Below are positions 14,907 through 52,200 of a stretch of 64,000 bases of DNA, in pieces. The notes beneath the pieces were generated by a model. It made no database searches. It was not told the DNA's origin and was given only the letters and a program-made list of their open reading frames with translations. The stretch covers positions 195,616 through 259,615 of the forward strand of contig CAKPHU010000002.1 of the NCBI GenBank assembly GCA_934162125.1. The letters are read 5' to 3'. How positions within the stretch are numbered: position 1 is the first letter of the stretch; each line of letters starts with the position of its first letter. Origin of the DNA: an uncultured Bacilli bacterium (lineage in GTDB: Bacteria; Bacillota_I; Bacilli_A; RF39; UBA660). The translations under genes were made by a program, and so were the position numbers.

Positions 14907-15138
14907 AGAATACCTCTAAGTTAAATATCTTCCCATTAATTAATATTTCTTTATCTAAAAGTTTATTTAAAACAAGATTTTCCCCTTTAATAACATACAT
15001 AACATCTCCAACTTTTAAAGCCACTCTAGAATCTGTTAAGGTCAAAATATTACTATAGTTAACAGCATATACTCTATCCTGATAGATTGTTAATCTAAAC
15101 TCTTCATCTTTAACATATTCTCTTATTTTATCAAACAC
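14899..15138 (-). CDS. yqfC: sporulation protein YqfC-like
   Basis: 79 aa; ...LTLTDSRVALKVGDVMYVIKGENLVLNKL... resembles YqfC; overlaps yqfD start. Confidence 0.65.
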   Translation of the reverse strand: MFDKIREYVKDEEFRLTIYQDRVYAVNYSNILTLTDSRVALKVGDVMYVIKGENLVLNKLLDKEILINGKIFNLEVFYD

Positions 15139-15223
15139 TTATATCACCTATAAAAGTATATGAAAATAGATTACTTCTTAGTAACAACTCCATTTATATT
15201 ATTTAACAAAAAGAAAAAAATCC

Positions 15224-15247
15224 CACAAAAAAAGTTCATTTCTGAAC
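15224..15247 (-). terminator. intrinsic terminator after yqeY
   Basis: Hairpin GTTCAGAAATGAAC followed by T7 on the minus strand directly after the yqeY stop. Confidence 0.55.
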
Positions 15248-15694
15248 TTATTGTAATTTACTCTTAATTATTTCACTAACTTTTTTCATATCAGCTCTAC
15301 CTCTTAGTTTAGCAGTAGCTTCTTTCATAACTTTACCCATATCTTTAACGCTTTCAGGTTTTACTTCTGCAAATATTTTTTCTATTTCTTCTACTACTTC
15401 ACTCTCTGATAATTGTTCTGGTAAATAAGCTTTTAAAATTTCAATCTCTTTCTTTGTTTTTTCAACTAAATCTTCACGATTACCTTTTTCAAATTCTAAA
15501 ATAGATTCTTCACGCATTTTAACTTGTTTACTAACAACATCAATTAGTAATTCATCATTAATTTCTCTTTTACGATCAATATGTTCAAGATCCATTGCTG
15601 CTTTAACCATTCTAATAACAGTTAAACGTTCTTTATCTTTTTCTTTCATTGCTTGAATCATATCAGCTTTTAATTTTTCTACCATGTTTTTCAT
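15248..15694 (-). CDS. yqeY: GatB/YqeY domain protein
   Basis: 148 aa, ...ERLTVIRMVKAAMDLEHIDRKREINDELLIDVVSKQVKMREES... YqeY family; rpsU-yqeY arrangement as in Bacillus. Confidence 0.85.
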   Translation of the reverse strand: MKNMVEKLKADMIQAMKEKDKERLTVIRMVKAAMDLEHIDRKREINDELLIDVVSKQVKMREESILEFEKGNREDLVEKTKKEIEILKAYLPEQLSESEVVEEIEKIFAEVKPESVKDMGKVMKEATAKLRGRADMKKVSEIIKSKLQ

Positions 15695-15732
15695 CTCCTA
15701 CTTATATTATATATAAATTTTTAAAAATGTAA

Positions 15733-15760
15733 ATTAAAAAAGAGACTTTTAATAGTCTCT
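15733..15760 (-). terminator. intrinsic terminator / attenuator overlapping rpsU stop
   Basis: Hairpin AGAGACTATTAAAAGTCTCT followed by T-run on minus strand. Confidence 0.45.
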
Positions 15761-15955
15761 GTTATTAGCACGATTTCTCTTTTGAGAATTTTTAATGCCT
15801 TCCTTCTTAGCTGCTCTTCTTCTTACTCCTGGTTTATCATAAGCTTCTCTTTTTCTACACTCTGAAGGGACACCATCTCTTGCGACTTTTTGTTTGAACT
15901 TTCTTAAAGCTTGATCCAAATTACCTTTATTAACAGTTACTTTTGTTGCCATCAT
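15749..15955 (-). CDS. rpsU: 30S ribosomal protein S21
   Basis: MATKVTVNKGNLDQALRKFKQKVARDGVPSECRKREAYDKPGVRRRAAKK; start moved to ATG-ATG after GGGAGGG RBS (track start includes the RBS). Confidence 0.9.
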   Translation of the reverse strand: MMATKVTVNKGNLDQALRKFKQKVARDGVPSECRKREAYDKPGVRRRAAKKEGIKNSQKRNRANNRDY

Positions 15956-15985
15956 TATCCCTCCCTTCGTTTTCAACTACATTGA

Positions 15986-16014
15986 ATTATAACAAAACTT
16001 TTTTTATATTTCAA
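15986..16014 (-). promoter_or_regulatory. sigma-A type promoter for rpsU (TTGAAA-17-TATAAT)
   Basis: Minus strand TTGAAAtataaaaaaagttttgtTATAAT ~35 nt upstream of the rpsU RBS. Confidence 0.5.
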
Positions 16015-16032
16015 CAAAAATTACGACATTTT

Positions 16033-16185
16033 TTACAAAAAGTACTTAAATTCCCACCAAAACCGTAATTTTTCTCCTAAAAGGATTCCAAAATCATATA
16101 AATTATGTAAAACAAGCCCCAATATCGGAATTAAAATTACCACTAGTAAAATCTTAAATACTCTTGAATGTTTATACCATATCAT
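16033..16185 (-). CDS. candidate bacteriocin immunity protein (50 aa, single TM)
   Basis: ORF MIWYKHSRVFKILLVVILIPILGLVLHNLYDFGILLGEKLRFWWEFKYFL; its ATG overlaps the TGA stop of prepeptide 1 (AAATGA), classic translational coupling of immunity genes. Confidence 0.45.
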   Translation of the reverse strand: MIWYKHSRVFKILLVVILIPILGLVLHNLYDFGILLGEKLRFWWEFKYFL

Positions 16186-16352
16186 TTTAAAGGACATAGT
16201 TCACCATCTACTATTCTTCTAATAGCTTCGCCTACGCTACATCCTGCATCATATAACACTTTAACTAATCCTGTAAAAGCACTAATAATTGTACCACTAA
16301 TTGTTGCTCCTCCACTAATCTTTTTAAGTTTTTCCAAAGAAACTCTATCCAT
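16182..16352 (-). CDS. class II bacteriocin prepeptide 1 with double-glycine leader (56 aa)
   Basis: MDRVSLEKLKKISGG|ATISGTIISAFTGLVKVLYDAGCSVGEAIRRIVDGELCPLK: leader fits LS-x2-EL-x2-I-x-GG consensus; RBS AAAGGAG 8 nt upstream; mature peptide has 2 Cys; directly downstream of C39-ABC exporter. Confidence 0.65.
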   Translation of the reverse strand: MDRVSLEKLKKISGGATISGTIISAFTGLVKVLYDAGCSVGEAIRRIVDGELCPLK

Positions 16353-16488
16353 TATTACACTCCTTTGGATTAGTAAAGCCTTCTAGAATCCCCGCAATGA
16401 AGACTACTATAGCCGCAATTGCTAAACCAGTCCATACGGAAAATCCTCCATTTATCTTAGCTAAAGAGTTATTATCCATTCTCTGCAT
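16345..16488 (-). CDS. class II bacteriocin prepeptide 2 with double-glycine leader (47 aa)
   Basis: MQRMDNNSLAKINGG|FSVWTGLAIAAIVVFIAGILEGFTNPKECNNG; hydrophobic mature peptide with GxxxG-like motifs (GLAIA, AGILEG); RBS GGTGA 5 nt upstream; its stop overlaps the ATG of prepeptide 1 (ATGGATAG). Confidence 0.55.
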   Translation of the reverse strand: MQRMDNNSLAKINGGFSVWTGLAIAAIVVFIAGILEGFTNPKECNNG

Positions 16489-16489
16489 A

Positions 16490-16900
16490 CTAATCACCAT
16501 CCTTTATTACTTTAAAAATTTCTCCCAAAGAAATTTGTCTATCCCTTAACACAATCTTAACACTATCACCATCCTTCTTATTTTTAAGACTACAATTAAT
16601 TAAAAGATCATGATAATTACTATCCTCTTCTTTTAATACATTCTTAATAACTTTACTACTCTTCACTTTAATTCTCTTATTGTCCACATAAATATAATTA
16701 CCATTTTTATTATAAATAGTAACATCTCTATCATTAACTATAGCTTCAATAAGTCCCTCATGCTGTACTACTCCATAAATAACATAATAACTATTAATCT
16801 TATAAAATATTGTATATCCTAAAAGAATCAGTCCTAAAATCAAAAATATCAATATAAAAAAGTTTAATCCATAACTCTTCTCATAATTTGTTAACCTCAA
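16490..16900 (-). CDS. small membrane-anchored accessory protein of bacteriocin export (HlyD-like N-terminus only)
   Basis: 136 aa, one N-terminal TM then soluble domain; overlaps ABC gene by 20 nt and its stop is 1 nt before prepeptide 2. Confidence 0.45.
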   Translation of the reverse strand: MRLTNYEKSYGLNFFILIFLILGLILLGYTIFYKINSYYVIYGVVQHEGLIEAIVNDRDVTIYNKNGNYIYVDNKRIKVKSSKVIKNVLKEEDSNYHDLLINCSLKNKKDGDSVKIVLRDRQISLGEIFKVIKDGD

Positions 16901-18965
16901 AAACTCTTCCTTTCTCTAACTTTAAAATCTTATCAAATAATTTTTGTTGATTAAATCTATGACTAATCACAATAATAGTCTTATCTTCTAAATAAGCAAA
17001 AATATCTTTGAGAATCTTACTCGTTTTATAACTATCAATCTGACTAAAAGCCTCATCAAAAATATAAATAGTACTATCTCTAACTAAAGATCTAGCCAGA
17101 ATTATTCTTTGTCTTTCTCCATTACTAAAATTACTACCATTGTCTTCTACCAGCCTTTGATACTGCATTTCTTCATCAACTAATTCATTAACTCTTGTAA
17201 TCTGTACTATCTTTTGAAACTCTTCTTCACTAACTTCTCTATTTAAAACAATATTATTATATAAACTATCTCGAAACAAAGTATCTAGATTACTCACATA
17301 AGTAATGTTTCTCCTAATAACATCTAAATGTATATGGTTAATATCAATATCACTAATCTTCACAAAACCAAAAGGGACTTCAAAATATCTCATCAGTATC
17401 TTCATTAAAGTACTCTTACCACTACCAGAGTCCCCCACTAATAAAACTTTTTCTCCTGGCTTTATCAAAAAACTAACTTTATCAAATAAAACTTTATCAA
17501 TAGTCTGATAATCTAAATTTCTAAATTCTATTTTTCCTTCAAATTTATTAAGTAAATAATAATAACTTCCACTAAACTTTTCGGAAGATATCATAAATAA
17601 ATCCTCTATTCTTTCCTTTGCCAATTTATAGTTCTGAAAATTATAACTAATATTTAATAAACTAAGAACCGAATTATAAAAATACCCAAAAAGGCTCTGA
17701 TAAATAATTAAACTAGCTAAATTAAATTTATTTAAAATAACCAAATAAGAACCATATCCCAAAATAATTGTATTAAGGAGATGTGAAAAAGTACTTCTAA
17801 ATAAATTAAATATTTCTTCTATTCTTAAATACACATAAGACTTTTCTAATAACTTCTCATACTTAATTTTAAAATTATCAATAATCTTCTTTTCTAAATG
17901 ACTACCTTTAATTGTCTCAATATTAGTAAAAGACTCAATTAAATATGCACTAACCATATCATTATTTCGATTTAAAGATTTCATTTTTTTCTTGCGAAAA
18001 CCATTAAATAAAGCCTGTTCCATAATTAGAATAATTAAAAATAAAAATACTACTATTGTTAAATTCTTATTACTTTTAAACATCAAATAAGAGAAAACAC
18101 CTACACTAATCACATCAATTATCCCGCTAGAAAACACTTGTGAAAGAAAAGACTTAATCACATTTAAATCTTTAATTCTTGAGATAACTTCACCAGTCGT
18201 TCTATTTCTATAATATAAATATGGAAGTAAGAGAATTTGCCTATATATTTTATTTGTTAAGTTAACATCAATTTGAAAAGTCCATTTACTAAGCAAAAGA
18301 TTTCTTAAAGTAAAAGCACTTTCTCTAAATAAATATAAAACAGCTAAGTAAATACTAATGATTAGAATTTGTTTAGTTAAACTGTATTCTATTCCTAACT
18401 CTAACAAATATTTAAAATGAAAAGCCGTCAAAATTTGTAATAAGAAATAAATAGCAGTTAAAAAAACACTCATTATAATTAATGCTTTCTTCCTTATAAA
18501 TAACTCTTTTGTAGCTTTTCTAATAATATTCTTACTCTTCATAACAGCAAGTCTCTTAACAGGATGTAGAAATATATAATTACCACTTTCAATTAATTTA
18601 AATTCCGCTAAAGATAAAATTCTCTTTCCTTTAGCTGGATCCATAATCACCACCTTACCATTTTCTAAATTAATGGAATATATAACTACAAAGTGTTTAT
18701 AGCTTTTATTCATAATGACATGAGCAAGACAAGGTAAGTTATTATCTTTTATTTTTGACAAGTCTCCCTTCATGCCTTCTGCTTTAAATCCTACTTCTTC
18801 TGCTGCCATTATTAGTCCAAGTGCTGTCACACCATTTCTATTTGTGCCACTAAGTTCTCGCAAATACTCCTTAGATACATCTCCCCCATAATATCTAATG
18901 ACAGATAATAAAGAACAAATGCCACAATCTTTCACACCATCTTGTAAGACTATCTTCATAAGCAT
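16881..18965 (-). CDS. bacteriocin-processing peptidase-C39 domain ABC transporter (double-glycine leader cleaving exporter)
   Basis: N-terminal C39 domain with catalytic Cys in QDGVKDCGICSLLSVIRYYGG, 6-TM domain, Walker A GDSGSGKST, ABC signature LSNGERQRI, Walker B IYIFDEA; 694 aa. Confidence 0.9.
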   Translation of the reverse strand: MLMKIVLQDGVKDCGICSLLSVIRYYGGDVSKEYLRELSGTNRNGVTALGLIMAAEEVGFKAEGMKGDLSKIKDNNLPCLAHVIMNKSYKHFVVIYSINLENGKVVIMDPAKGKRILSLAEFKLIESGNYIFLHPVKRLAVMKSKNIIRKATKELFIRKKALIIMSVFLTAIYFLLQILTAFHFKYLLELGIEYSLTKQILIISIYLAVLYLFRESAFTLRNLLLSKWTFQIDVNLTNKIYRQILLLPYLYYRNRTTGEVISRIKDLNVIKSFLSQVFSSGIIDVISVGVFSYLMFKSNKNLTIVVFLFLIILIMEQALFNGFRKKKMKSLNRNNDMVSAYLIESFTNIETIKGSHLEKKIIDNFKIKYEKLLEKSYVYLRIEEIFNLFRSTFSHLLNTIILGYGSYLVILNKFNLASLIIYQSLFGYFYNSVLSLLNISYNFQNYKLAKERIEDLFMISSEKFSGSYYYLLNKFEGKIEFRNLDYQTIDKVLFDKVSFLIKPGEKVLLVGDSGSGKSTLMKILMRYFEVPFGFVKISDIDINHIHLDVIRRNITYVSNLDTLFRDSLYNNIVLNREVSEEEFQKIVQITRVNELVDEEMQYQRLVEDNGSNFSNGERQRIILARSLVRDSTIYIFDEAFSQIDSYKTSKILKDIFAYLEDKTIIVISHRFNQQKLFDKILKLEKGRVFEVNKL

Positions 18966-19001
18966 CTCTCACTTCCATATTTATTATTTAGCAAGAAAAC
19001 G

Positions 19002-19027
19002 CTTAATCCCACAAAAAAAGAAGCAAT
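19002..19027 (-). terminator. intrinsic terminator after the surface-protein gene
   Basis: Hairpin AGAAGCAGAAATTGCTTCT followed by T7 on minus strand. Confidence 0.55.
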
Positions 19028-19233
19028 TTCTGCTTCTTTTAAATACCCAAGGCGAACTTAGAACTATGTATCAAAAAAATATTAGTTGTTGAGAGTAAAT
19101 ATTTTTCTTTCTAAGTTCAAATACATTATAACACACTTTTTATTTGTAAACAAGTAATTTACTAAAAAATATAAAAAAGAGTAATTATAAAAATTACTCC
19201 TCAAAGCCATTAAAATTATATTATCGATAATTC

Positions 19234-22200
19234 TTATTCCATCACATTAGACTTCTTACGATTTTTTCTACACATAAAGATTATAAAAGCTAATAACAAT
19301 GCATCTACGATAGAAGCTATTATAATAATCAAATTATCATTTGCACCTTCAGTATTTGGCACTGTATTTTCAGTCTTGGTAATTATTATATCTGTATTTA
19401 CTATTCCATCACTATATTCTAATTCTAATTTATGAGTACCTATTTCCAATGTATTTAAATAACTAGATTTTAATGTCAAAATAGTACTTCCATTCTTTAA
19501 TTCATAATTTGAAGAGTTAACCTCAATACCATCTAACTTTACTTTTATTAACTTTTCTAGTTCACCATCAGCTTTAATCACAATATCTTTGCTTGAGTCA
19601 ACTTCATAAGTTTGATTATTGCCACTTAAGATTGTGTATTTAACTCCAGCATCTTTCCATATAATTTTTACTACTGTATCATTATTAAAAGCATAAGTAT
19701 CTTCAATCCATCTCTCATTATTAACCATAATATAATCAAATCTCATATCAGTTGGTGGAGTTATTAATAAAGCAATCTTACTTTCTATATCACTTTTCTT
19801 TAATGAAGACCCCTTATCAATCACAATTGTTTCAAAACCATTATTTTTTCCACCATTAGTATCTATTGTTATTTTTACTTGTTCAATAAATTTTGCATAA
19901 ATACTTATATTTTGTTTAATCGTTGTATTAAAGTCAAACTTTGTTTTGAATGTTTCATCTGTATACCAATCATCAAATCTGTAATTATCCTTTGTAGGAT
20001 TAGGGGCTGGTCTTGATATCTTTTCTCCTGAACTCACATAACCAGAATACAATTCTTTTCCTTCAGACATAAATGTAACTTTATATGAAGCTGCTGGTGA
20101 CAATATTTTCCATTCTATCTTTATTGGATTAGTTGTACCATCAGACCATACATAGTTAGTAGTTGAAGATAAAGTACATATTTGAGTATAAGATTTTACT
20201 TTAGTTCCTTTTAAATCCCCACTACCCTTACTTCCTTCTGGACACTGGATACCACTATCTTGTTCACTACCATTATAGATTCTGTCTCCAATTTTTGTTG
20301 GAATTATTAACTTTTTCTTATTTATAGTAAGTTTTACACAACTACTGCTGGCTTGCTTTGTATTTAGAGTTTCATTAGAAATTGCTTTAACATAATAAGT
20401 TCCGGCATTTACTGGTGCTTCACCACTATTTTTAGCACCTGTTTTGGTAGTTGTCTCCACCGTACATTTATCATTAGTATAATATTTGTAAATTAACACT
20501 ACTCCATTTACATTTACACTTGCCTGATTTGCTTCCATTGCACTTCCCGAATATGTCCCGGTTTTAGCAGTCAATGTAATTTTAGGAGTTGCCTGGACTA
20601 TCTTCCATTTAATTTGTTTATTACCAGAAGATCCATCTGACCATACATACCTGCTAGTATCATTTAATTTCAAAGTTACAATATACTCTCCAGCATTTTG
20701 TGCACTTACCGTACTACTAGAACTAACTATACTTACATTAGCTGGTACAGCAATTCCATGATCCTGCATATTACCTGTATAAGTTTTATTTGTTGGATTA
20801 TCTGGTATTTTAACCTTCTCTTTTGGATCAACTAATTTTAGTTTAATCCATTTTGATATACTACTATTTTCGTCAAGTCCACCAAAATAATCTTTAGTTT
20901 GATTGCTTGTATCAGTTGTATCATTATTTTGAAGCATTGCAAATAATTTCAATTCTTTTGCTGTCAAATTAAAATTATTCTTAGGAATTGTAATAACAGC
21001 TTTAATTCCTCTTGCATTAACATCCGTAGCTGTGAAATTTTGTGAGATATTTACTTTTATTAGATTACTATTCTTAATATCAGTCTCTGTACCATTTTTA
21101 ACTAATTTTACTGTTGCTAAACCACTTGGATTAATTCCAACACGCAAATAATCATATGTCGTACCATTGTATTTTAAATTTGCCGCATTAACCTTAATTT
21201 CCACATAATCCTGACCAGCAACACTATTTTGATCTAGCCAATCAATATAAAAATAAATATTATTTAAATCATAATTTGATCTTATTGACATTTGAGCTTG
21301 TGATGCACTACCTATAAACAAAGCATCATCATTAGTATTTGACAAGACTTCATTTTTTATCTCTAATGTATGATTCAAATACAAATTATGTATTCCAATA
21401 TGATCTCTTTTCTTATTAGGATAATATGATGCAGTAAGTAATGCAAAACTATGTGTTGAAGTTGTCGCAATTGAACCAAATTGAGACCATCTTCCTGCTT
21501 CTTTCATCACATTTGGTTCCGACTTATCAAAATTTCCATTTGAATCTCCAATCATTATAGTTGGATAGTCTCCATTAGAATAATATAAAATCGTTTCACC
21601 TGATGGCATTTGAATAATATATGGTGCTGATCCTGACACAAAATTATTTTTTCTAGTAATTGGGCCAGTTTCTGTTAAACCCAAACCAACATTATCGTAT
21701 ACTTTTGCTTCACCATCAAAGTTAGTGTTTGCCTGATGTTGACTATTAATATCCATCCAATACTTCTGTTTACTAACACCATTAACCCTAACATTAGTTG
21801 CATTTGAATACGCTAATGAAATTTTATTCTTTAATGTAACTGATTCTGTATTTTTAACATTACCAGTAGTACATTGTCCAGAACAATTTTCATCACATTT
21901 TGAAGCGGAATCACAAATTGAAGGATTGTCTTTACAATTAGTGCTTATTGTAAAAGATTCAACAGCCATAACCATTTTCTTCTTATTATTAAGTTCTACT
22001 CCAACTGGCATTTGATCAGTCATTTTAATAATTTTATTATTATAACTTATTCCCTTATGACATTGACAATTTGTTTTTAGATTTGTAAAATCAACTATTT
22101 CAGTTGTATTTTGCCAAACAACTGGCTGTTGAATAATTACATATGGTGAATAAGAATTTCTCTCACTAGAATTATATCTTTTATTAGTTCCAACTATATG

Positions 22201-23124
22201 TGGAGTAAAGCTATTAGCATTATCAAGAGAAGATATCATTCCTACTCCTGATGAATTAAAATGGGGACCATTAACAGCTATATAATTTTTATATTTTTCT
22301 GCAAGGCTAACTCCATTTATATACTCAACAGGCGCAATACACGTAAAATATACTTGTATCTCACCAGTTGACAATTGAGCAATTGATGGTTCCCAAACAT
22401 AGCCTGAATAAATTTGTTTTTCAGTAGACCATGTCTTACCGCCATCAGAACTTATTTTCATATATATTCCAATTTTATTAAAAACTTCTGGAGTATAAAC
22501 CCAAACACTTTTTGGTACTTTTGCCACAACATTCATAATTCTGCCATCTCGTAAAACGATTGAATCAGAACTTGAATAATTATATTTTACAGAATTTTCT
22601 GTATATGATTCGTATAATTTCTTTGGTGTTTCCCAATTTTTTAAATCATTACTTCTAGTATAATAAACATTTATTCCATTAGCACTACTTGTATCAATAT
22701 TTTGAAAAGTTAATAAATACTTATACTCACCATTGGCTATATACTTAAGTCTAGGATAATTCATTAATTCTAAATCACTATTATTTTGATCCAAATTACT
22801 TTTATATAGCATTATTGTTTCCCTAAGATTACCTTCAAATGAACTAACAACAGTATTACTACTTACTATATCATCCTTATTCGAATCTAAAGACTTTTGT
22901 GTTTTATTTAAATTAGATATTTTTTCAATAGGCTGTTTCAAGAAAGTATTATTTGCAAAATCACTCATATCTTTATAATCATAATCAATTGAATAACTTG
23001 TCTTTAAGTTTAAAATAACCGCAAAAATAATCACTGCCAACAGCAAAAAAAGATTTCTCTTATTTAATAATTTTTTCATATTTCTCACCAACAACTTATT
23101 AAAGTAATTTGCACATTTTTTCAA
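19234..23124 (-). CDS. large cell-surface protein: BNR/sialidase-like repeats, Ig-like repeats, Listeria-Bacteroides repeat, C-terminal TM anchor
   Basis: 1296 aa; signal peptide (likely from second Met MKKLLNKRNLFLLLAVIIFAVIL); BNR motif SSDGGKTWS; repeated ...YVWSDGS... Ig-like modules; YRFDDWYTDETFKTKFDF repeat; C-terminal hydrophobic anchor + RKNRKK. Confidence 0.75.
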   Translation of the reverse strand: MKKCANYFNKLLVRNMKKLLNKRNLFLLLAVIIFAVILNLKTSYSIDYDYKDMSDFANNTFLKQPIEKISNLNKTQKSLDSNKDDIVSSNTVVSSFEGNLRETIMLYKSNLDQNNSDLELMNYPRLKYIANGEYKYLLTFQNIDTSSANGINVYYTRSNDLKNWETPKKLYESYTENSVKYNYSSSDSIVLRDGRIMNVVAKVPKSVWVYTPEVFNKIGIYMKISSDGGKTWSTEKQIYSGYVWEPSIAQLSTGEIQVYFTCIAPVEYINGVSLAEKYKNYIAVNGPHFNSSGVGMISSLDNANSFTPHIVGTNKRYNSSERNSYSPYVIIQQPVVWQNTTEIVDFTNLKTNCQCHKGISYNNKIIKMTDQMPVGVELNNKKKMVMAVESFTISTNCKDNPSICDSASKCDENCSGQCTTGNVKNTESVTLKNKISLAYSNATNVRVNGVSKQKYWMDINSQHQANTNFDGEAKVYDNVGLGLTETGPITRKNNFVSGSAPYIIQMPSGETILYYSNGDYPTIMIGDSNGNFDKSEPNVMKEAGRWSQFGSIATTSTHSFALLTASYYPNKKRDHIGIHNLYLNHTLEIKNEVLSNTNDDALFIGSASQAQMSIRSNYDLNNIYFYIDWLDQNSVAGQDYVEIKVNAANLKYNGTTYDYLRVGINPSGLATVKLVKNGTETDIKNSNLIKVNISQNFTATDVNARGIKAVITIPKNNFNLTAKELKLFAMLQNNDTTDTSNQTKDYFGGLDENSSISKWIKLKLVDPKEKVKIPDNPTNKTYTGNMQDHGIAVPANVSIVSSSSTVSAQNAGEYIVTLKLNDTSRYVWSDGSSGNKQIKWKIVQATPKITLTAKTGTYSGSAMEANQASVNVNGVVLIYKYYTNDKCTVETTTKTGAKNSGEAPVNAGTYYVKAISNETLNTKQASSSCVKLTINKKKLIIPTKIGDRIYNGSEQDSGIQCPEGSKGSGDLKGTKVKSYTQICTLSSTTNYVWSDGTTNPIKIEWKILSPAASYKVTFMSEGKELYSGYVSSGEKISRPAPNPTKDNYRFDDWYTDETFKTKFDFNTTIKQNISIYAKFIEQVKITIDTNGGKNNGFETIVIDKGSSLKKSDIESKIALLITPPTDMRFDYIMVNNERWIEDTYAFNNDTVVKIIWKDAGVKYTILSGNNQTYEVDSSKDIVIKADGELEKLIKVKLDGIEVNSSNYELKNGSTILTLKSSYLNTLEIGTHKLELEYSDGIVNTDIIITKTENTVPNTEGANDNLIIIIASIVDALLLAFIIFMCRKNRKKSNVME

Positions 23125-23134
23125 TCACTATTTA

Positions 23135-24025
23135 CTAAAAAATTAAATTTCCTTCTTTCATAACCTCTGGGTACCAGTCAGCATGATCAAAAGAATATGT
23201 AACCATTTCTGTTTGATCTAACCCATTATAATAGAAATTACTATCTTTATTTTGAATAGATGCTGCCACAGTAGAATCAAAATTATAATAATTTCCATCA
23301 TAATAAACAATATTCCAAGCATGATCTTCTCCACTATTACCAGTAACAATATAAGACTTTATACCAATATTCTGAAAAATAACTTGACTAGCTTTTGCAT
23401 AAGCTGCACAAACTGCACTATCACCAAAAAAGACACTATAAATAGACTGGTTCTTTGAAGAATATGTAAACACTTTATCATACTTACTATTAGAACTAAT
23501 CCAATAATAAACATACTGAATCTTATCTAAATCACTCATATTCTTAGTATTATTTTTAATTATATCAATTTCTCTTTCAATCTTTCTTTCCCCAATAAAA
23601 TCAAAAAATCTAGCTGGCAATGCATACACAAAACTAACCTTTACTTTTTTATCCGTAAACATCATAAAAAACGTTGAGAAACTTAAAAGTTCTGGATGAT
23701 CTACAAAAATAGCATCATATACATTTTGCATAATACCTGTACATTCATCATTATCACTACAACTATAAGAAGATAAATCAATCTCAATTGATCCTTTATG
23801 TTCTTTTATAGCTTTCACAAGACTATCATAAGTTTTCTTTTCATCATTTGATAAATAATTATTATAAATTCTACCATCAGACATATAAATATCATTAACA
23901 TAGAACTTACTATTCTTGTCAATCAATTCATTTCTACTTACTGGCCTAAAAAAGTTCCAATAAATAACTACCACACAAATTATAAATAGTATTGTTAAAA
24001 AAACATGATTCTTTATAAAATTCAT
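23135..24025 (-). CDS. transglutaminase-like cysteine protease superfamily protein, membrane-anchored
   Basis: N-terminal TM; Cys-His-Asp arrangement GDSAVCAAYAKA ... GEDHAWNIVYYDGNYYNFDST. Confidence 0.65.
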   Translation of the reverse strand: MNFIKNHVFLTILFIICVVVIYWNFFRPVSRNELIDKNSKFYVNDIYMSDGRIYNNYLSNDEKKTYDSLVKAIKEHKGSIEIDLSSYSCSDNDECTGIMQNVYDAIFVDHPELLSFSTFFMMFTDKKVKVSFVYALPARFFDFIGERKIEREIDIIKNNTKNMSDLDKIQYVYYWISSNSKYDKVFTYSSKNQSIYSVFFGDSAVCAAYAKASQVIFQNIGIKSYIVTGNSGEDHAWNIVYYDGNYYNFDSTVAASIQNKDSNFYYNGLDQTEMVTYSFDHADWYPEVMKEGNLIF

Positions 24026-24065
24026 TATCTCACCCTATCCTAGAATAAGTATAACACAACTTAAA

Positions 24066-24095
24066 AACAAAAAAAAGTTCTTGAAACAAGAACTT
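24066..24095 (-). terminator. hairpin terminator (potentially bidirectional) after tRNA-Arg
   Basis: AAGTTCTTG-aaa-CAAGAACTT flanked by A-run on one side and T-run on the other. Confidence 0.55.
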
Positions 24096-24105
24096 ATTTT
24101 TTAAA

Positions 24106-24182
24106 TGGTGTCCGCGAGGCGACTCGAACGCCTGACCGATCGCTTAGAAGGCGATTGCTCTATCCAGCTGAGCTACGCAGAC
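24106..24182 (-). tRNA. tRNA-Arg (anticodon TCT)
   Basis: Cloverleaf GTCTGCG/TAGCTCAGCTGGATAGAGC/ATCGC-CTTCTAA-GCGAT/.../GGTTCGAGTCC.../CGCGGAC-A-CCA; own TTGCAA-17-TATAAT promoter at 24200-24230. Confidence 0.85.
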
Positions 24183-24270
24183 ATAATCAACTGACAAATA
24201 GAATTATACATTAAAAGTCCTTTTCTTGCAAGAGATTTTTATATTTTTTCTAAATATCAGTTATTTATTT

Positions 24271-25443
24271 TTAATCAGTAGCTTTTTTTATTGCATTATC
24301 TATCTTAACAAGAACTTTTCCCACATCTTGTTCTGTTTCACGTTTTAATTCTTTAATGTGTTCACGTAATGACTCGTTACCAAAAACAACAGTATCATCG
24401 ATTCTATCTAAAATAGCATCATATTCCACATTAGAAGAAAATCTTGCATCTGTAAAATTAGTCTTTGTAACAGGACTAGTAAGATAAAGATCAATTACAG
24501 CACCTCTACTGCCAGTAAAGTTTGTACCTTCTAAAGTTCCATTGAATAAACAATCTTCTCCAAAAGTAACTCCCGCTAAATTGCATTGAAAAAGACTGAC
24601 TTCTCTTCTTTCAGATAATTGTGCATTAAAACCGTAACTACCTCTAAAATCTGTATTTCTAATATACAATGAACTATTAGTATATGGTTTTGTAAAGTAT
24701 ACCCCTTCAAATTTACAATTTGAAAGAGTTCCCGCAACTGTATTAGGATTCATTTCAATCATTCCATCAGTTACACTCTTAGCACCTCTGAAATCAGTAT
24801 CACCAATAGTACAGCCGTAAAAATCACCATCTATTTTTGCATCATCAAGAATAGTACCTGTAAAGTCCATACTCTCTGCTTTAATAAGAGCACCTTTACT
24901 ACCTTCAAAGCTATCATCTTTAACTGTATTTGGATATTCAATACTACCTTTAAAAGTCACACTATGATAAGTATTACTACCTAAAAGTTTATTCTTACTT
25001 GGAACAATAACAGCACCTTTACTATTTGAAAAAATAGTATCTTGAATTATACATCCCTCAATAGGTCTTACAAATTCAACGCCCACAAATTCTGCTCCTC
25101 TAAAATCAGGAAAAACTGTATCAGGATTTATCTTAACTCCTGTTAACCCTGCAAAGTTATATCCCATACATACAACATTATCAAAAGACACATTAGACAT
25201 ATCTATCTTTTTCAAAATTTCTGGTGGAAGAGTAAAAAATAATGCTTCGCATTCTTCTCCATTATTCATATCATTTTTAATTTTACTAGGCTTAAATAAT
25301 ACTTTTTCTAATAATCCTTCTGGAAAGTCATCTAACAATACTGGCTTTCCTTTATAATGACTTAACGTCTTAACCAAATAATCTCTTACTGCATCTGCTT
25401 TCTTCTTAGTAAATGCTTCACTATCAAATATATCATAAGTCAT
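24271..25443 (-). CDS. pentapeptide-repeat protein
   Basis: Long runs of A(D/N)(L/F)xx-type pentapeptides (...DFRGAEFVGVEFV..., NFTGSRGAVIDL...); 390 aa. Confidence 0.65.
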   Translation of the reverse strand: MTYDIFDSEAFTKKKADAVRDYLVKTLSHYKGKPVLLDDFPEGLLEKVLFKPSKIKNDMNNGEECEALFFTLPPEILKKIDMSNVSFDNVVCMGYNFAGLTGVKINPDTVFPDFRGAEFVGVEFVRPIEGCIIQDTIFSNSKGAVIVPSKNKLLGSNTYHSVTFKGSIEYPNTVKDDSFEGSKGALIKAESMDFTGTILDDAKIDGDFYGCTIGDTDFRGAKSVTDGMIEMNPNTVAGTLSNCKFEGVYFTKPYTNSSLYIRNTDFRGSYGFNAQLSERREVSLFQCNLAGVTFGEDCLFNGTLEGTNFTGSRGAVIDLYLTSPVTKTNFTDARFSSNVEYDAILDRIDDTVVFGNESLREHIKELKRETEQDVGKVLVKIDNAIKKATD

Positions 25444-46297: not shown

Positions 46298-49200
46298 CTA
46301 TTTCCTATAAATAACCACATCATGCTTCTTCTTATCATTTACTAATTTAATTTTACTTACACTCGTACCATCAACTAATATTTTATCAGTTTTATCTTTT
46401 TTAACTTCTATATCATAAGTTGTATCTAAATACTTATAAGTAATATTAAATTTCTTAAATTTATCCAAAACACAAGGTTCAATATTTAAAATACTGCCTT
46501 CTTTTTTAATACCTAATAAATCTCTAATTCCTACATTATAGAACCAACCAGCAGAACCTGTATACCATGTCCAACCACCTCTACCAGCCATATTAGTTGC
46601 TGAATAAATATCGGCTGCAATAACATAAGGTTCTACTTTATATTCTTCTATATTATTCTTAGTAACTGGATTAATCATTTGATAGTAACGATAAGCTTCA
46701 TCATATTTCTTTTCTTTTATTAAAGCCATAATATACCAGCTAACTGCATGAGTATATTGTCCACCATTTTCTCTAATTCCTTTAGAATAATTCATAATAT
46801 AACCAGGATTATTTAAAGACTTACTGAAAGGTGGTGTTAAAAGCTTTACTAAACCATGTTCTTCATCCACTAAGTTATCTGAAACACTATTCAAAACTTC
46901 ATCTTTCTTCTCTTCTGGACAAACTCCACTGATAAGGGCAAAACTTTGTGAAATAAGATCAATCTTACACTCTGTATTGTCATGACTACCAAGTCGATCC
47001 CCATTATCAAAATAAGCTCTTAAATAATATTTGTCATCCCAACCATACTTATTAAGATTATCTTTTAATTTACTATTAAACTTTTCTAATTTACTAATAT
47101 CATAAGAAGAATCAAACTTCTCTATAACTGGTATAAACATCTCAATAATATTGTAAAGGAAGAATCCTAGCCAAACACTCTCGCCCTTACCTTTAATACC
47201 AACTCTGTTCATACCATCATTCCAGTCACCTCCACCCATTAAAGGTAAATGATGACTTCCTAAAGAATTAATACTTAAATTAAGTGCTTTTTCTAAATGT
47301 TTAAACAAACTATCTTTTTCACTAGTATATTCAAAGTTTACAGTCTTTTCATTTTCATAATCTCCAAGAATTGGTGCATTAATATAAGGTACTTCTTCAC
47401 TTAAGATAGCCACATCACCAGTAACTTCAATATACATAATAGTTGCATACACTAGCCATAAATAATCATCTTTATATCTACTTCTAAGTCCAAAATGATT
47501 ATCTTCATGCCACCAGTGTAATACATCTCCCTCTATAAACTGATGACTTGCATTTCTTAATATCTGATCATGTGTCACACTTGGATCTACTAAAACTATA
47601 TTCATGGCATCTTGTAATTGATCACGATAACCATAAGCACCACTTACTTGATAAAAACCTGCTTTCGCAAATAGTCTTGAAGAAATAGTTTGATATAAGT
47701 ACCAACCATTTAAAACATAATCAAGTGCCACATCTGGGGTCTTAACCTTCACAACAGATAATTTCTCTTTCCAAGTTGAAACTACGTCTTTAAACTCTCT
47801 CTTGACACTCTCAACATTACGATATTTTTTAAGAAGCATTTCTAAATAATCATTATCTCTAGAAGCTCCCAACATAAATACCATTTCTTTTTCTTCTAAA
47901 GGTTCAAGTTCAACTTTCGTACTAATACTCTTTGAAAGAATACGATCAACAGATGAATCTGTAAGTTTCATACTAGATGCCATACATACTACAACATCAC
48001 TATAATTGATACTATAAACATTACGTAACTTAACATAATCATCTCTATCTATATATTCTGTCAAAATATGTCTAGCTGTCTTCTCCTCAAAATTACCAAG
48101 AACAGGATTAATATAGTATGAAACATCTAAAGCTATTTTCTTCTTTGTTTTATTTGTAAGTTTAACTAAATATAACTTAACTGTATCTTCTACCGCTACA
48201 AACTCACAAATCTCTTTCTTAACTTCACTAGTTTCAGACTCTAAAATACTATATCCAAAACCATGTCTACACTTATCAGCTACAAAAGTTCTATTATCAA
48301 ATTTAAATCCTTCACTCTGATCATTAACCACAATATCATTAGTCCATGATGTAATCTTAAATTCTCCTGAATTATAAGCAAATGTATAACCACAACCATT
48401 ATTAGTCACAATAGTACCAAAATTCTTATTACTTATTACATTACTCCAAGGAGTTGGTGTATTTCTATTATAAATAAGGTATTCTTCCCCATCTTTAACA
48501 AAACCACCATAACCATTATCAAATACAATTTTTTCTTTAATTTTACTTTCTACATTTCTTTCGTATAAAGCTTCTTCATAATTACTAATTTTATTATGTT
48601 CTTGCAAGTCAGAGATAGCACTTTCCAAAGTCATATGATCTTTAATAATAAATTTAAGTCTAGGAACTACATTAAATAAAATTCTCTCTTCACTAGATAA
48701 ACTATTACCATCAATTACTTTTATCATTCCAGGCGTATGATAGAAATTATTTAATGAATACATTCTATATATTTCATCATCTATTTCTTTATTAATAATC
48801 TTAGCGTATTTATCTTTCTCATCATTAATAATTACTATATCTACAAAGATAGAATTATTTTTATAGTACTCAAAAGTTTTTAAAATACTAAAGACAAATG
48901 GTAAATCACTAATATCACTAATATCAACTAAAATAATTGGTCTGTCTCCACTAACTCCAAATTTCCATAAAGCATTCTGTCCCAACGCATTTTGTCTTAA
49001 AATCTCATTTCTCTCTTCACTAACTGAAATCTTTGTAGTTTGATACAAATAGTTAAGCATAATATTATAAAGTCGCATATCACTACCCGTAATAGAAAGC
49101 ATCTTTGTATTCACAATATTATTAAGTGTCGCTACTTTAAAAGCATTATCTATTTTCTTCTTATCGTTATAGCTTTCAATTATATCATTTATTTGTTCTC

Positions 49201-52200
49201 TACTACGTCCAAATCCCGCAATATAATAAACTGTTGTTGAACTATTTGGTCCAATTAAAATCTTATTTCTAATACTCATTACTGGATCTAAGTTATCACC
49301 CACATAATTAGTTAATTTATTATCTAACATAACTGGGTCATTAACAGTTCTACCTCTACCTACGAAATTATATCTTTCTGTTTCATAAGAATAATCTTCT
49401 AGTGGATCTTCAATTAATAGTCTATTAAACATATAACTATTAACTGCCGCATCCCCTCTACTTCTTCTCTTCATAATTAAAGAATTACTCTTCTTATCAA
49501 ACTCACTAGTAATAAACATACTATTAAATACTCTATGACTAACATCATCCATATTAGGAGAAAGTATTACTTCTGTATAAGTAGTAAGTTCTAAACTCTT
49601 TACTTCATCACTATTATTTCTAAATGTAACCTTTCTAATCTCTCCGTGATGAGAACTCATTACAATAATCTCTGTCTTAGTAGTTATTACTCCATCTTTT
49701 CTAATGTACTTAATATTATCTGAAGCAAAAACAACTTCGTAATTATCGCACTTCTTATTAACAGGTGCATAAGTATTAGACCAAACATAATCAGTATCTA
49801 AATCCTTAATATACATAAACATACCATAGTCTTGTTCTGTTACTTTACGATATCTATTTAATTGAAGAGTTCTATATCTTGAGAAACTATCTCCTCTATC
49901 ATTCATAAGTAAAGCATATTTTCTATTAGATAGAACTGATACTTCTGGCATATAAGAAATATAGTTAAAGTATCTGATATCGTTTTCTATTCCTTCTTTA
50001 GCATAATTATATTTCTTATAATCAGCCATCTTCATATCAATATCTGCTTTTACTTGAACTTTTTCTTTTAATAAAATGTCATAAGTCTTAATATTAACGT
50101 TATGATGGAAATAGTTCTTAATAGCTCCATCTTTTAAATAATTTGTAAGTCCCGCTAATATCATTCCTTGATGATGTGAAAAGAATGCTTCCACAACACC
50201 TTTATTATCATAGTCATAAGCTTCATATAGACCATATTTTCCAGTCATGTCTAGTTCTCTAAACTTTAATATATTCTTATAAACATCCCTTGGAAATAAC
50301 TCCATTACCATAAGTGAAGCATAAGGAGCTAAAACTATTCTATTATCACTAGACTCTTTTGCCTTTAAGTATGGTGTCGCAAAAGCTCTATATTTATAGT
50401 TTAATGAATTATCAAGTTCATTATAAGCTGACTCACTAATTCCCCATGGCAACTTTCTAGAAACCCCTGCCACATAGTCTTTTTGACAGAAATATGAAAA
50501 TTTATAAGACTCATCCAACAATGTATTTGGATAATTCTTCATAAATAAAAGTGGCATATAATATTCAAAAGCTGTTCCAGACCAAGAAATAAGTCCTTTT
50601 CTTCCCTTATAAGTTGTTAAAGACTTATCAAGAGAAAACCAGTGTTTACTAGAAACATCTCCTAAACAAATAGCTAAATAACTAGTAAGTCTAGATTCAC
50701 TCGCAAACTTATTATAGTTATAAATAGAAAGTTTCCCTTCATTATCATCATACCCTATACTAAAGACATGTTTCTTAGTATATAGCTTTCTAAAATTAGT
50801 ATTCTTAATCAATTTATCACATAACTTAACTAGCTTCTCATCACCCAATTTATATAAGAATTCTCTTACTACAATCAAAGAACTAACAAAGTTACCAGAG
50901 TCAACTGTTGAAACAAACCTTGGATTTATTACTTTACCAGTCTTAATAGAATACCAGTTATATAAATGACCATGCCATTTTTCTAATTTAGAAACACTAT
51001 CTAAAACCTTCTCTATAAGTTCAAGTGCTTCATCTTTTTTAATAAACTCTAATTCATAAGCACTAACTATACTTACAAGTGAAAAACCTATCGCTGTTGG
51101 AGAAGTCCTCATATCTAGTTTTTCTTCCCTATTTTCCTGATAATTATCAGGAATTAAATAGAAATATTCTGCACGTAAATTATCTTTAAAGTATAACCAT
51201 GTCTCATAAGCTAATTTCTTAACGTCTTCATCTTCATCTTCTTTTAAATCTACTCTCTCATCTGGAATAGTTAAACTAACATAATATAAGATAAAAGGAG
51301 CTGAAATAAATACTAATGCAATTATAAAAGCAACTACTTCTTTAAAAATAATACCTAAAATAATGAAGACAACACTAACCCCAATATTAAAATAGAAATT
51401 CTTAATGTAAGTAATTAAATCACTTTTCAAAGTCTTTTCTGCATCTTCTGCTGTTACCCAATTAAGTAAATTCTTATGACTAACAGTAAGTCTATAAATA
51501 GTTCTAAAGAAAGCGTCTAAATATAGTTTTGTATAAAATGGAATTGTCGCTAAAGTAATATAACACTTCAAAATAAGACTTCTTCCACCAAAAACTAAGT
51601 TCTTATAATAAACCGTCTTACTATGTGATTCTTCTTTAATTAATTTATTCTTCAAAAAGAAGATAACTGGTATCGCAATCGCTAAAACAACAAATCCAAC
51701 CCACCACCAAGCATTAACTTTTGGACAACAAACTGCTAAAAGTAATACCACCAAAAGTAATGGTTGATAAAATATTCTCACAATATTGTCCAATATTTTA
51801 AACTTACCCAAAATATTAATTGGATTCTTAATTAGATCTCCTTTTTTATTTCTAACTCTATTTCCTAACCAGGAAATAATCTGTGTATCTCCTCTAGCCC
51901 AACGATGATGTCTAGAAGTATCAGTTAAAAACTTTGCAGGGAAATCATCAACTAATTCAATATCTGATACATAACCACAACGTAAATAATTTCCTTCTAA
52001 TAAATCATGTGAAAGTATTAAATTATCTGGAAATACTCCATCTAATATCTGATCAAATACTTTTAAATCATAAATACCCTTACCTACAAAACTTCCTTCT
52101 AAAAAAGTATCTTGATATACATCAGGTATCAAAGCGGAATAAGTATCAAATCCTCCTATACCTGCAAATATTTGACTATATAAACTCTTATTAGTTGCTT

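Follow-up and report, generated by a model that had tools for sequence, protein, structure and literature searches.

Within a 64,000-nucleotide (nt) stretch of DNA from an uncultured Bacilli bacterium of the RF39 lineage (GenBank assembly GCA_934162125.1, contig CAKPHU010000002.1, positions 195,616 to 259,615; the whole stretch is called the window here and is numbered from its first nucleotide), the open reading frame (ORF) listing places five genes in a row on the minus strand, at 16033-18965, directly upstream of rpsU. In order of transcription these are an exporter gene (16881-18965, 694 amino acids [aa]), an accessory gene (16490-16900, 136 aa, TTG start), two genes for prepeptides with double-glycine (GG) leaders, which we call pepA (ORF 16345-16500, 51 aa; likely gene 16345-16488, 47 aa) and pepB (16182-16352, 56 aa), and pepC (16033-16197, 54 aa), encoding a protein with a single transmembrane (TM) segment that is an immunity candidate. 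We regard it as secure that this module is the operon of a peptidase-containing ATP-binding cassette transporter (PCAT), that it encodes a pair of co-evolving cargo peptides with GG leaders together with a small TM partner, and that it is fixed in its lineage. An exporter, an accessory gene and three small, coupled ORFs on one strand had already been described in an earlier sequence-only reading of this DNA, and all of them are present as described.

By its domain architecture, a C39 peptidase followed by a six-TM ABC_membrane domain and an ATPase, the exporter is a PCAT. Peptidase_C39 (PF03412, 1.4e-33), ABC_membrane (PF00664, 6.9e-30) and ABC_tran (PF00005, 1.5e-24) all match above the Pfam gathering threshold, and the closest solved structures, PCAT1 of Clostridium (Acetivibrio) thermocellum (4RY2, E = 8e-88) and ComA of Streptococcus (8HF4, E = 6e-84), are both aligned over the full length. 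The Cys/His/Asp set and the oxyanion Gln of the C39 domain (Q8, C14, H91, and D109) line up with PCAT1, with H91 lying in the segment HFVVIYSI, identical to that of PCAT1, and the ATPase harbors the Walker A motif GDSGSGKS at 511 and the Walker B motif IYIFDEA at 633. Unlike these homologs, to which its alignment is clearly divergent, the exporter carries the ABC signature FSNGERQR in place of the usual LSGGQ, and the cargo peptides are unrelated. It scores under the curated cut-offs of TIGR01193 (bacteriocin_ABC; 356 versus 523.85 bits) and of NF045998 (Mbov_0121 family; 294.8 versus 500 bits), and on these scores we place it outside any curated subfamily. Its true start is probably ATG 18959, from which the protein begins MKIVLQDG, as it does in relatives. 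The relatives that are 50 to 67% identical all come from uncultured samples, and their contigs hold the same five genes. The labels L010 to L081 used below denote individual loci or contigs. The exporter is broken into two ORFs in three contigs (L081, 1226-3309; L044, 3-2085; L059, 2383-4462); in L081, from a conspecific strain, the pieces measure 45 and 660 aa. Either sporadic pseudogene formation by frameshift or faulty assembly would account for the split.

The accessory gene adjoins the exporter gene in relatives too. Its product features a conserved N-terminal NYEK motif, one TM helix, and then a beta-rich extracytoplasmic part, and it belongs to no Pfam family; the AlphaFold2 (AF2) model built from the single sequence has a mean predicted local distance difference test (pLDDT) score of 47.7 and is confident for the TM helix alone. 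Of 18 members of the accessory family, 13 match weakly the NCBIfam model NF045999, which describes the Mycoplasma MAG1140 family (E = 7.6e-6 at best). The accessory of the window itself scores 12.8 bits (E = 0.1), under the 35-bit cut-off, so that on these scores the relation is one of distant similarity only. The pair formed by Mbov_0121 (NF045998) and MAG1140 (NF045999) in Mycoplasma is like ours in joining a PCAT to a partner of about 126 to 136 aa; however, all scores are under the curated cut-offs (35 and 500 bits). Two relatives of pepA also give weak matches to the "MPN313 family," as do two relatives of the accessory to the "MG406 family." Together with the accessory similarity, these matches hint that the module may have counterparts in Mollicutes.

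The start of pepA is most likely ATG 16488, which would give a product of 47 aa: this codon sits behind the Shine-Dalgarno (SD)-like sequence GGATGGTGA, and the N termini of relatives read MQK or MEK. The prepeptide consists of a 15-aa GG leader, MQRMDNNSLAKINGG (ending in LAKINGG and followed by FSVWTGLAIAAIVVFIAGILEGFTNPKECNNG), and a 32-aa hydrophobic mature part with a GxxxG motif and the motif TNPxxC. An alignment of 35 sequences shows G13, G14, G32, G36, P40, and C43 to be invariant. Among the same 35 relatives, 28 match NF038034 (lactococcin G-beta/enterocin 1071B; best 1.5e-7), 21 match TIGR03949 (lactobin A/cerein 7B; best 8.7e-7), and 24 match PF10439 (Bacteriocin_IIc; best 2.1e-4); these values are E-values, and none was shown to reach a curated cut-off, so what these relatives show is a likeness to class IIb beta-peptides at scores short of the curated thresholds. 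The mature part has a median net charge of -1 and a grand average of hydropathy (GRAVY) of +1.05, rising to 2.0 across its first 23 residues.

The pepB product is likewise made up of a 15-aa GG leader, MDRVSLEKLKKISGG (ending in LKKISGG and followed by ATISGTIISAFTGLVKVLYDAGCSVGEAIRRIVDGELCPLK), here with a 41-aa mature part whose median net charge is +1. Exhaustive HMMER searches yielded 69 cluster representatives, nearly all of 51 to 72 aa; relatives in NCBI metagenome-assembled genomes are annotated as "hypothetical protein." G14, G15, G37, G41, R45, R46, and C53 are invariant in the alignment (n = 71), and the AF2 model computed from the 71 sequences predicts a single helix at 18-48 (pLDDT about 75 to 83) and a nonhelical C-terminal tail that bears the Cys. 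We detected no Pfam, NCBIfam, or PDB family for pepB; matches were occasional and confined to the leader, and the PDB profile search gave chance matches. The invariant GG in both alignments bears out the two GG-leader prepeptides of the sequence-only reading, and their leaders share the consensus L-x2-I-x-GG. A regular-expression search for GG-leader ORFs in all six frames of the window had no matches other than pepA, pepB, and two fragments internal to larger proteins. Each of the two peptides has one invariant Cys near its C terminus, and GxxxG is invariant in pepA, pepB, and pepC alike.

The start of pepC, ATG 16197 (MSFK...), lies within the pepB codons ...L-C-P-L-K. A length of 54 aa is more likely than the 50 aa given before, because most related loci keep an ORF with the 16-nt pepB overlap (13 or 19 nt in four) and because several relatives lack the second Met, from which the shorter version was read; the single TM segment of the earlier description holds. 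The pepC alignment (n = 28) has M1, G37, and G41 as invariant positions, the latter two forming the GxxxG, and we found neither a Pfam family nor homology to known immunity proteins. Along the operon, neighboring genes overlap by 20 nt (exporter/accessory), 8 nt (pepA/pepB), and 16 nt (pepB/pepC), and the accessory stop is separated from the pepA ATG by a 1-nt gap. The three small ORFs are real genes: about 60 related loci conserve them, purifying selection acts on pepA and pepB, and their motifs are invariant. They had been called unannotated, which is right with respect to the size cut-off of the ORF listing but not with respect to public gene calls, where all three are already listed.

In a pepB-anchored scan of metagenomes, which returned 51 loci, the order exporter, accessory, pepA, pepB, (pepC), rpsU was found wherever the contig was long enough. 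Ratios of nonsynonymous to synonymous substitution rates (dN/dS), calculated by the Nei-Gojobori method on unsaturated pairs only, range from 0.05 to 0.28 for pepA and from 0.01 to 0.24 for pepB, next to 0.11 to 0.17 for the exporter and 0.11 to 0.12 for YqfD; pepA and pepB are under purifying selection. With 0.28 to 0.7, pepC evolves faster than pepA and pepB, which fits a specificity or immunity partner. In 10 conspecific strains the mature parts of pepA and pepB are identical, the only change being K8N in the pepB leader, and pepC shows up to five substitutions. Absent or disrupted peptide ORFs in relatives, which the sequence-only reading had named among the observations that would count against it, were looked for and were not found.

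The module lies directly upstream of rpsU in relatives whose exporters are 31 to 67% identical, and exporter identity falls together with that of YqfD (exporter/YqfD, in percent: 100/100, 58/60, 54-56/57-58, 47-49/44-47, and 31-34/38-42), while ribosomal protein S21 drops from 100 to 55% across the same range. All three loci picked through YqfD, blind to the module, have it, and an exact look-up of S21 retrieved 10 contigs from 10 samples, 97.9 to 99.3% identical to the window, every one of them with the full module. No relatives of the module were found among IMG/VR viral contigs or PLSDB plasmids, and by GC content it does not stand out. One clade, the one in which pepB identity is lowest (36%), has the module after sepF and divIVA instead. 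Wherever rpsU stays the downstream gene, nothing is inserted between pepC and rpsU, and this junction is kept more faithfully than the classical rpsU-yqeY pairing, which is interrupted by extra genes in L013 (9266-11129), L073 (3573-6203), and L075 (5318-6226). The locus is thus chromosomally fixed and vertically inherited throughout a deep clade of Bacilli, uncultured spore formers of low GC from gut and rumen.

What does vary between strains is the neighboring DNA. A 3.95-kb segment at 19176-23129 (minus strand), which holds a surface-protein gene and its terminator and is not part of the module, is missing from all 10 conspecific contigs, which are 97.9 to 99.3% identical to the window on both flanks; comparison of the junctions shows that the segment is flanked in the window by the 14-nt direct repeat ATTTTTTAGTAAAT. 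The gene itself (19234-23124) encodes a 1,296-aa protein with BNR and Listeria-Bacteroides repeats and has a homolog only in the same-strain contigs L010 and L011. As to whether rpsU is normally adjacent to this gene, a check proposed with the sequence-only reading, the answer from the 10 conspecifics is that the surface-protein gene is absent and that the indel is the strain-variable piece. More broadly, the stretch from gerM to the promoter of the operon is a variable zone between relatives, the module being constant. In the window this zone contains, at 23135-25443, genes for a pentapeptide-repeat protein (390 aa), a tRNA-Arg, and a transglutaminase-like protein (296 aa); in L013 to L016, L025, L074, and L075 it has a tRNA only, a pentapeptide protein only, or nothing. 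Elsewhere in the window, at 46298-53935 on the minus strand, lies an ORF of 2,545 aa.

Downstream of the module, rpsU (15749-15955, minus strand) encodes the 68-aa ribosomal protein S21 (PF01165, 6.8e-16; TIGR00030, 3.2e-16). It has a promoter of its own at 15986-16014 (minus strand; TTGAAA-17-TGnTATAAT), which a consensus scan scored at 11 of 12 matches with the TG present and which begins 18 nt after the pepC stop. Over 15000-19600, the terminator scan returned a single terminator-like site, at 15760-15741 (minus strand), past rpsU, and none in the interval between pepC and rpsU; the earlier statement that no terminator precedes the rpsU promoter is therefore confirmed.

Upstream of the exporter, in the interval that ends at the surface-protein terminator, we recognize a candidate sigma-A promoter with an extended -10 element at 19125-19153 (minus strand; TTGTTT-17 nt-TGtTATAAT). 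It was read from the sequence, the consensus scan having missed it with a -35 that matches at 3 of 6 bases, and the box AGTAAATTrCTTGTTTACA...TGTTATnAT is kept upstream of the leader in L012 to L015, L038, and L074. Next comes a structured leader of about 65 nt (19054-19118, minus strand), in which a closing helix, GAACUUAGAA/UUCUAAGUUC, surrounds a hairpin with the pyrimidine-rich loop UUUACUCUCAA, and then, some 50 nt ahead of the exporter gene, a strong intrinsic terminator or attenuator (19013-19040, minus strand; AAAAGAAGCA-GAAAU-UGCUUCUUUU followed by a U-run). Before the exporter start codon, about 45 nt are conserved (...AAUAAUA...GGAAGUGAGAG), and the fold z-score is -2.8. The leader architecture recurs in 16 independently folded relatives. 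Relatives keep the loop motif (UUUGUYUYCUCA), and the leader is also present upstream of the exporter in L030, L031, L037, L047, L051, L058, L059, L061, and L072. The closing helix differs by subclade and stays complementary (GGACUUAAA/UUUAAGUCC, GGAAGUG/CACUUCC, GUAGGAAG/CUUCCUAC, or GGGAUAAAU/AUUUAUCCC), and in a second clade there is an additional hairpin, its UAUCACGCGUUUGG loop invariant. A hairpin followed by a T-run is found 45 to 70 nt before the exporter in nearly all relatives, including some loci that have no leader and retain the terminator. The exception is a deep-branching clade (L045, L050, L055, L056, and L068) where leader and terminator are replaced by a divergent gene for an HTH_3 (XRE-type) regulator, which suggests that this clade may control the same module differently.

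Support for the RNA structure differs with the test applied. In an alignment fitted to a covariance model, which leans towards structure and includes marginal matches, the closing helix is 98 to 100% paired, 8 of 9 pairs change on both sides, and 0 of 500 shuffles equal this; tested sequence by sequence, the helix performs weakly (1 to 35% of shuffles equal it), AT-rich ends pairing easily. The covariance model built from the second, "CACGCG-loop" clade gave 10 strong matches, found the clade of the window at a marginal level (E 0.3 to 0.9), and missed the window itself; with the window not recovered by a single model for both leader types, homology of the two types is unproven. Searches with 4,227 Rfam covariance models gave no match at the gathering score in the window, with chance-level matches (E up to 10) in 18940-19260, and returned tRNAs only in eight related loci. 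We consider the leader a candidate attenuator, a riboswitch-like element, or a separate small RNA, all three unproven. Other explanations of this region were set aside. A leader peptide with ribosome-mediated attenuation could be read from the ORF MYLNLERKIFTLNN in the window and L012, whose frame and start are not conserved in L013 to L015. Pairing of the pyrimidine-rich loop with the 5' strand of the terminator or with the SD region, sought by eye, gave an exact 8-mer in L038 and was inconsistent, and we make no claim of it. A sporulation-sigma promoter at the conserved GCGAATAATA box would, by its spacing, have a -10 that falls within coding sequence. Nearly all loci, leaderless ones included, also carry, in the interval from the terminator to the start of the exporter (window 18966-19012), a conserved box (U)UUGCGAAUAAUAnAnUAGGAGGUGAnAG, which reads CUUGCUAAAUAAUAAAUAUGGAAGUGAGAG in the window; it is a candidate second promoter, standby site, or pairing partner.

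Class IIb bacteriocins are defined by adjacent peptide genes whose products bear GG leaders of 15 to 30 residues, removed by a dedicated ABC transporter, by an immunity gene in the operon, and by GxxxG or GxxxG-like motifs in both peptides; the lactococcin G operon also holds an ABC transporter and an accessory gene (PMC2850506). At the sequence level our locus fits this definition. Its peptide genes overlap by 8 nt and are side by side in all related loci, both leaders have 15 residues with an invariant GG, and an exporter with the C39 catalytic residues in place is encoded in the same operon. The GxxxG motifs are invariant (G32-x3-G36 in pepA, n = 35; G37-x3-G41 in pepB, n = 71), and the conserved, translationally coupled TM protein after pepB would take the place of the immunity protein. 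The class II bacteriocin architecture proposed by the sequence-only reading is in this way upheld and can be narrowed to the two-peptide type, the C39 residues, the GxxxG pairs, and the class IIb matches below cut-off all pointing to it. The likeness to lactococcin G extends to the accessory gene, to the small membrane protein after the peptides, and to the matches of pepA relatives to the G-beta model. The locus differs from class IIb systems in being exporter-first, in its 136-aa accessory, in the one invariant C-terminal Cys of each peptide, and in being fixed and vertically inherited across a deep clade, not strain-variable or plasmid-borne.

On this basis we lean, by somewhat more than an even chance, to the view that pepA and pepB form a class-IIb-like, two-peptide, secreted membrane-active agent with pepC as its immunity protein, a role that the faster evolution of pepC fits. 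Such a system might operate as follows. Transcription would start at the extended -10 sigma-A promoter and pass through the structured leader and terminator, so that expression may be low or conditional. The five genes, with their overlaps and the 1-nt gap, are translationally coupled. The C39 domain, by homology to PCAT1 and ComA, would recognize the 15-residue leaders and cut after Gly-Gly, and the exporter, presumably assisted by the 136-aa accessory, would ship a 32-aa hydrophobic and a 41-aa helical peptide. The two could pair helix to helix via GxxxG, perhaps locked by their C-terminal Cys, and enter target membranes, and pepC, itself a GxxxG-bearing TM protein, would shield the producer. 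In the absence of a terminator, transcription may also run past pepC into rpsU.

Several points weigh against the two-peptide bacteriocin. The pepA of the window is below every bacteriocin cut-off tested (TIGR03949, 20.0 versus 21.5 bits; NF038034, 14.9 versus 37 bits; PF10439, 20.1 versus 27.1 bits), pepB and pepC match no described family in our searches, and accessories of the LcnD/ComB type are about three times the size of the 136-aa protein. Compared with six characterized class IIb peptides, whose net charges are +3 to +5, the mature peptides carry less positive charge and are more hydrophobic. No thiol-oxidoreductase gene that would form a disulfide is present in the locus, and the hosts are probably anaerobes. 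Fixation across the lineage together with strong purifying selection is atypical for a weapon of competition.

Part of this evidence is what one would expect of a core, non-antagonistic function, in which the peptides act on the producer, e.g., as a GxxxG-packed complex of pepA, pepB, and pepC serving the envelope, division, or sporulation; we hold this to be possible, if on balance unlikely. On this reading the module would correspond, in spore formers, to the PCAT and small accessory pair kept in Mycoplasma genomes. All sampled members of the deep clade carry the module, which occupies a housekeeping site (upstream of rpsU, or next to sepF/divIVA in the deepest branch), purifying selection is as strong as on neighboring core genes, pepA is TM-like over its first 23 residues and not cationic, all three small proteins keep their GxxxG, and accessory and exporter resemble the MAG1140 and Mbov_0121 (295 bits) models. 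On the other hand, GG leaders, a peptide pair, a TM protein, and class IIb beta-likeness make up a bacteriocin signature, pepC evolves faster, as expected of an immunity or specificity partner, and the Mycoplasma similarity lies under curated cut-offs. That GG-leader peptides exported by a PCAT need not be antimicrobial is illustrated by the small secreted GG-motif proteins that Synechococcus elongatus reportedly needs for biofilm (PMC4997328), which set a precedent for a conserved role in physiology, although that organism belongs to another phylum, its peptides are unrelated, and no immunity-like partner is reported for them. A more specific version is unlikely: an ancestral, non-weapon export system of Mollicutes-related low-GC Bacilli, distantly shared with Mbov_0121/MAG1140, in which a membrane complex with three GxxxG motifs, possibly disulfide-linked, would be gated by the riboswitch-like leader.

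Secretion of one or both peptides as pheromones that would control a population behavior, like ComC or BlpC via ComAB or BlpAB, appears improbable to us. At 32 and 41 aa, with a hydrophobic, helical character and GxxxG, the mature peptides differ from typical pheromones, which are short; their co-translated small TM partner suits immunity better, and no histidine kinase or response regulator is among the called flanking genes of the loci inspected. In favor of signaling, a few pepA and pepB relatives weakly match ComC-type models through the leader, and PCATs do export GG-leader pheromones (PMC7595303). A possible parallel is the ABC-transporter gene MG_390 of Mycoplasma genitalium, which shares a transcript with MG_389 as part of the sigma-20 recombination regulon (PMC4446450). 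Far less probable than signaling, indeed close to excluded, is a recently acquired or strain-specific bacteriocin island within a housekeeping block, as the sequence-only reading had supposed. What speaks for it is the general expectation alone that bacteriocin loci are accessory. We reject a recent insertion because the site is the same down to 31% exporter identity, the exporter diverges together with YqfD, all 10 conspecifics carry the module, and no relatives were found among IMG/VR viral contigs or PLSDB plasmids; what differs between strains is the surface-protein gene next to it.

Bacteriocin loci normally belong to the accessory genome and vary between strains, and a complete two-peptide/PCAT operon kept at one chromosomal site next to rpsU, under purifying selection and over a range in which S21 drops to 55% identity, is unusual. 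The pepB proteins (69 cluster representatives, no annotation) and the small, immunity-like pepC proteins constitute new sequence families; the accessory, of a small type distantly tied to Mycoplasma, is also new, and the leader is a candidate for a new structured RNA ahead of a PCAT gene. The mature peptides, at 32 and 41 aa, are short enough for direct synthesis and testing. If the non-weapon reading with the three-GxxxG complex were true, the peptides and their TM partner would have a core cellular or developmental role. Either a bacteriocin can behave as part of the core genome over very long times, or a conserved role of GG-leader peptide pairs in physiology has so far escaped notice.

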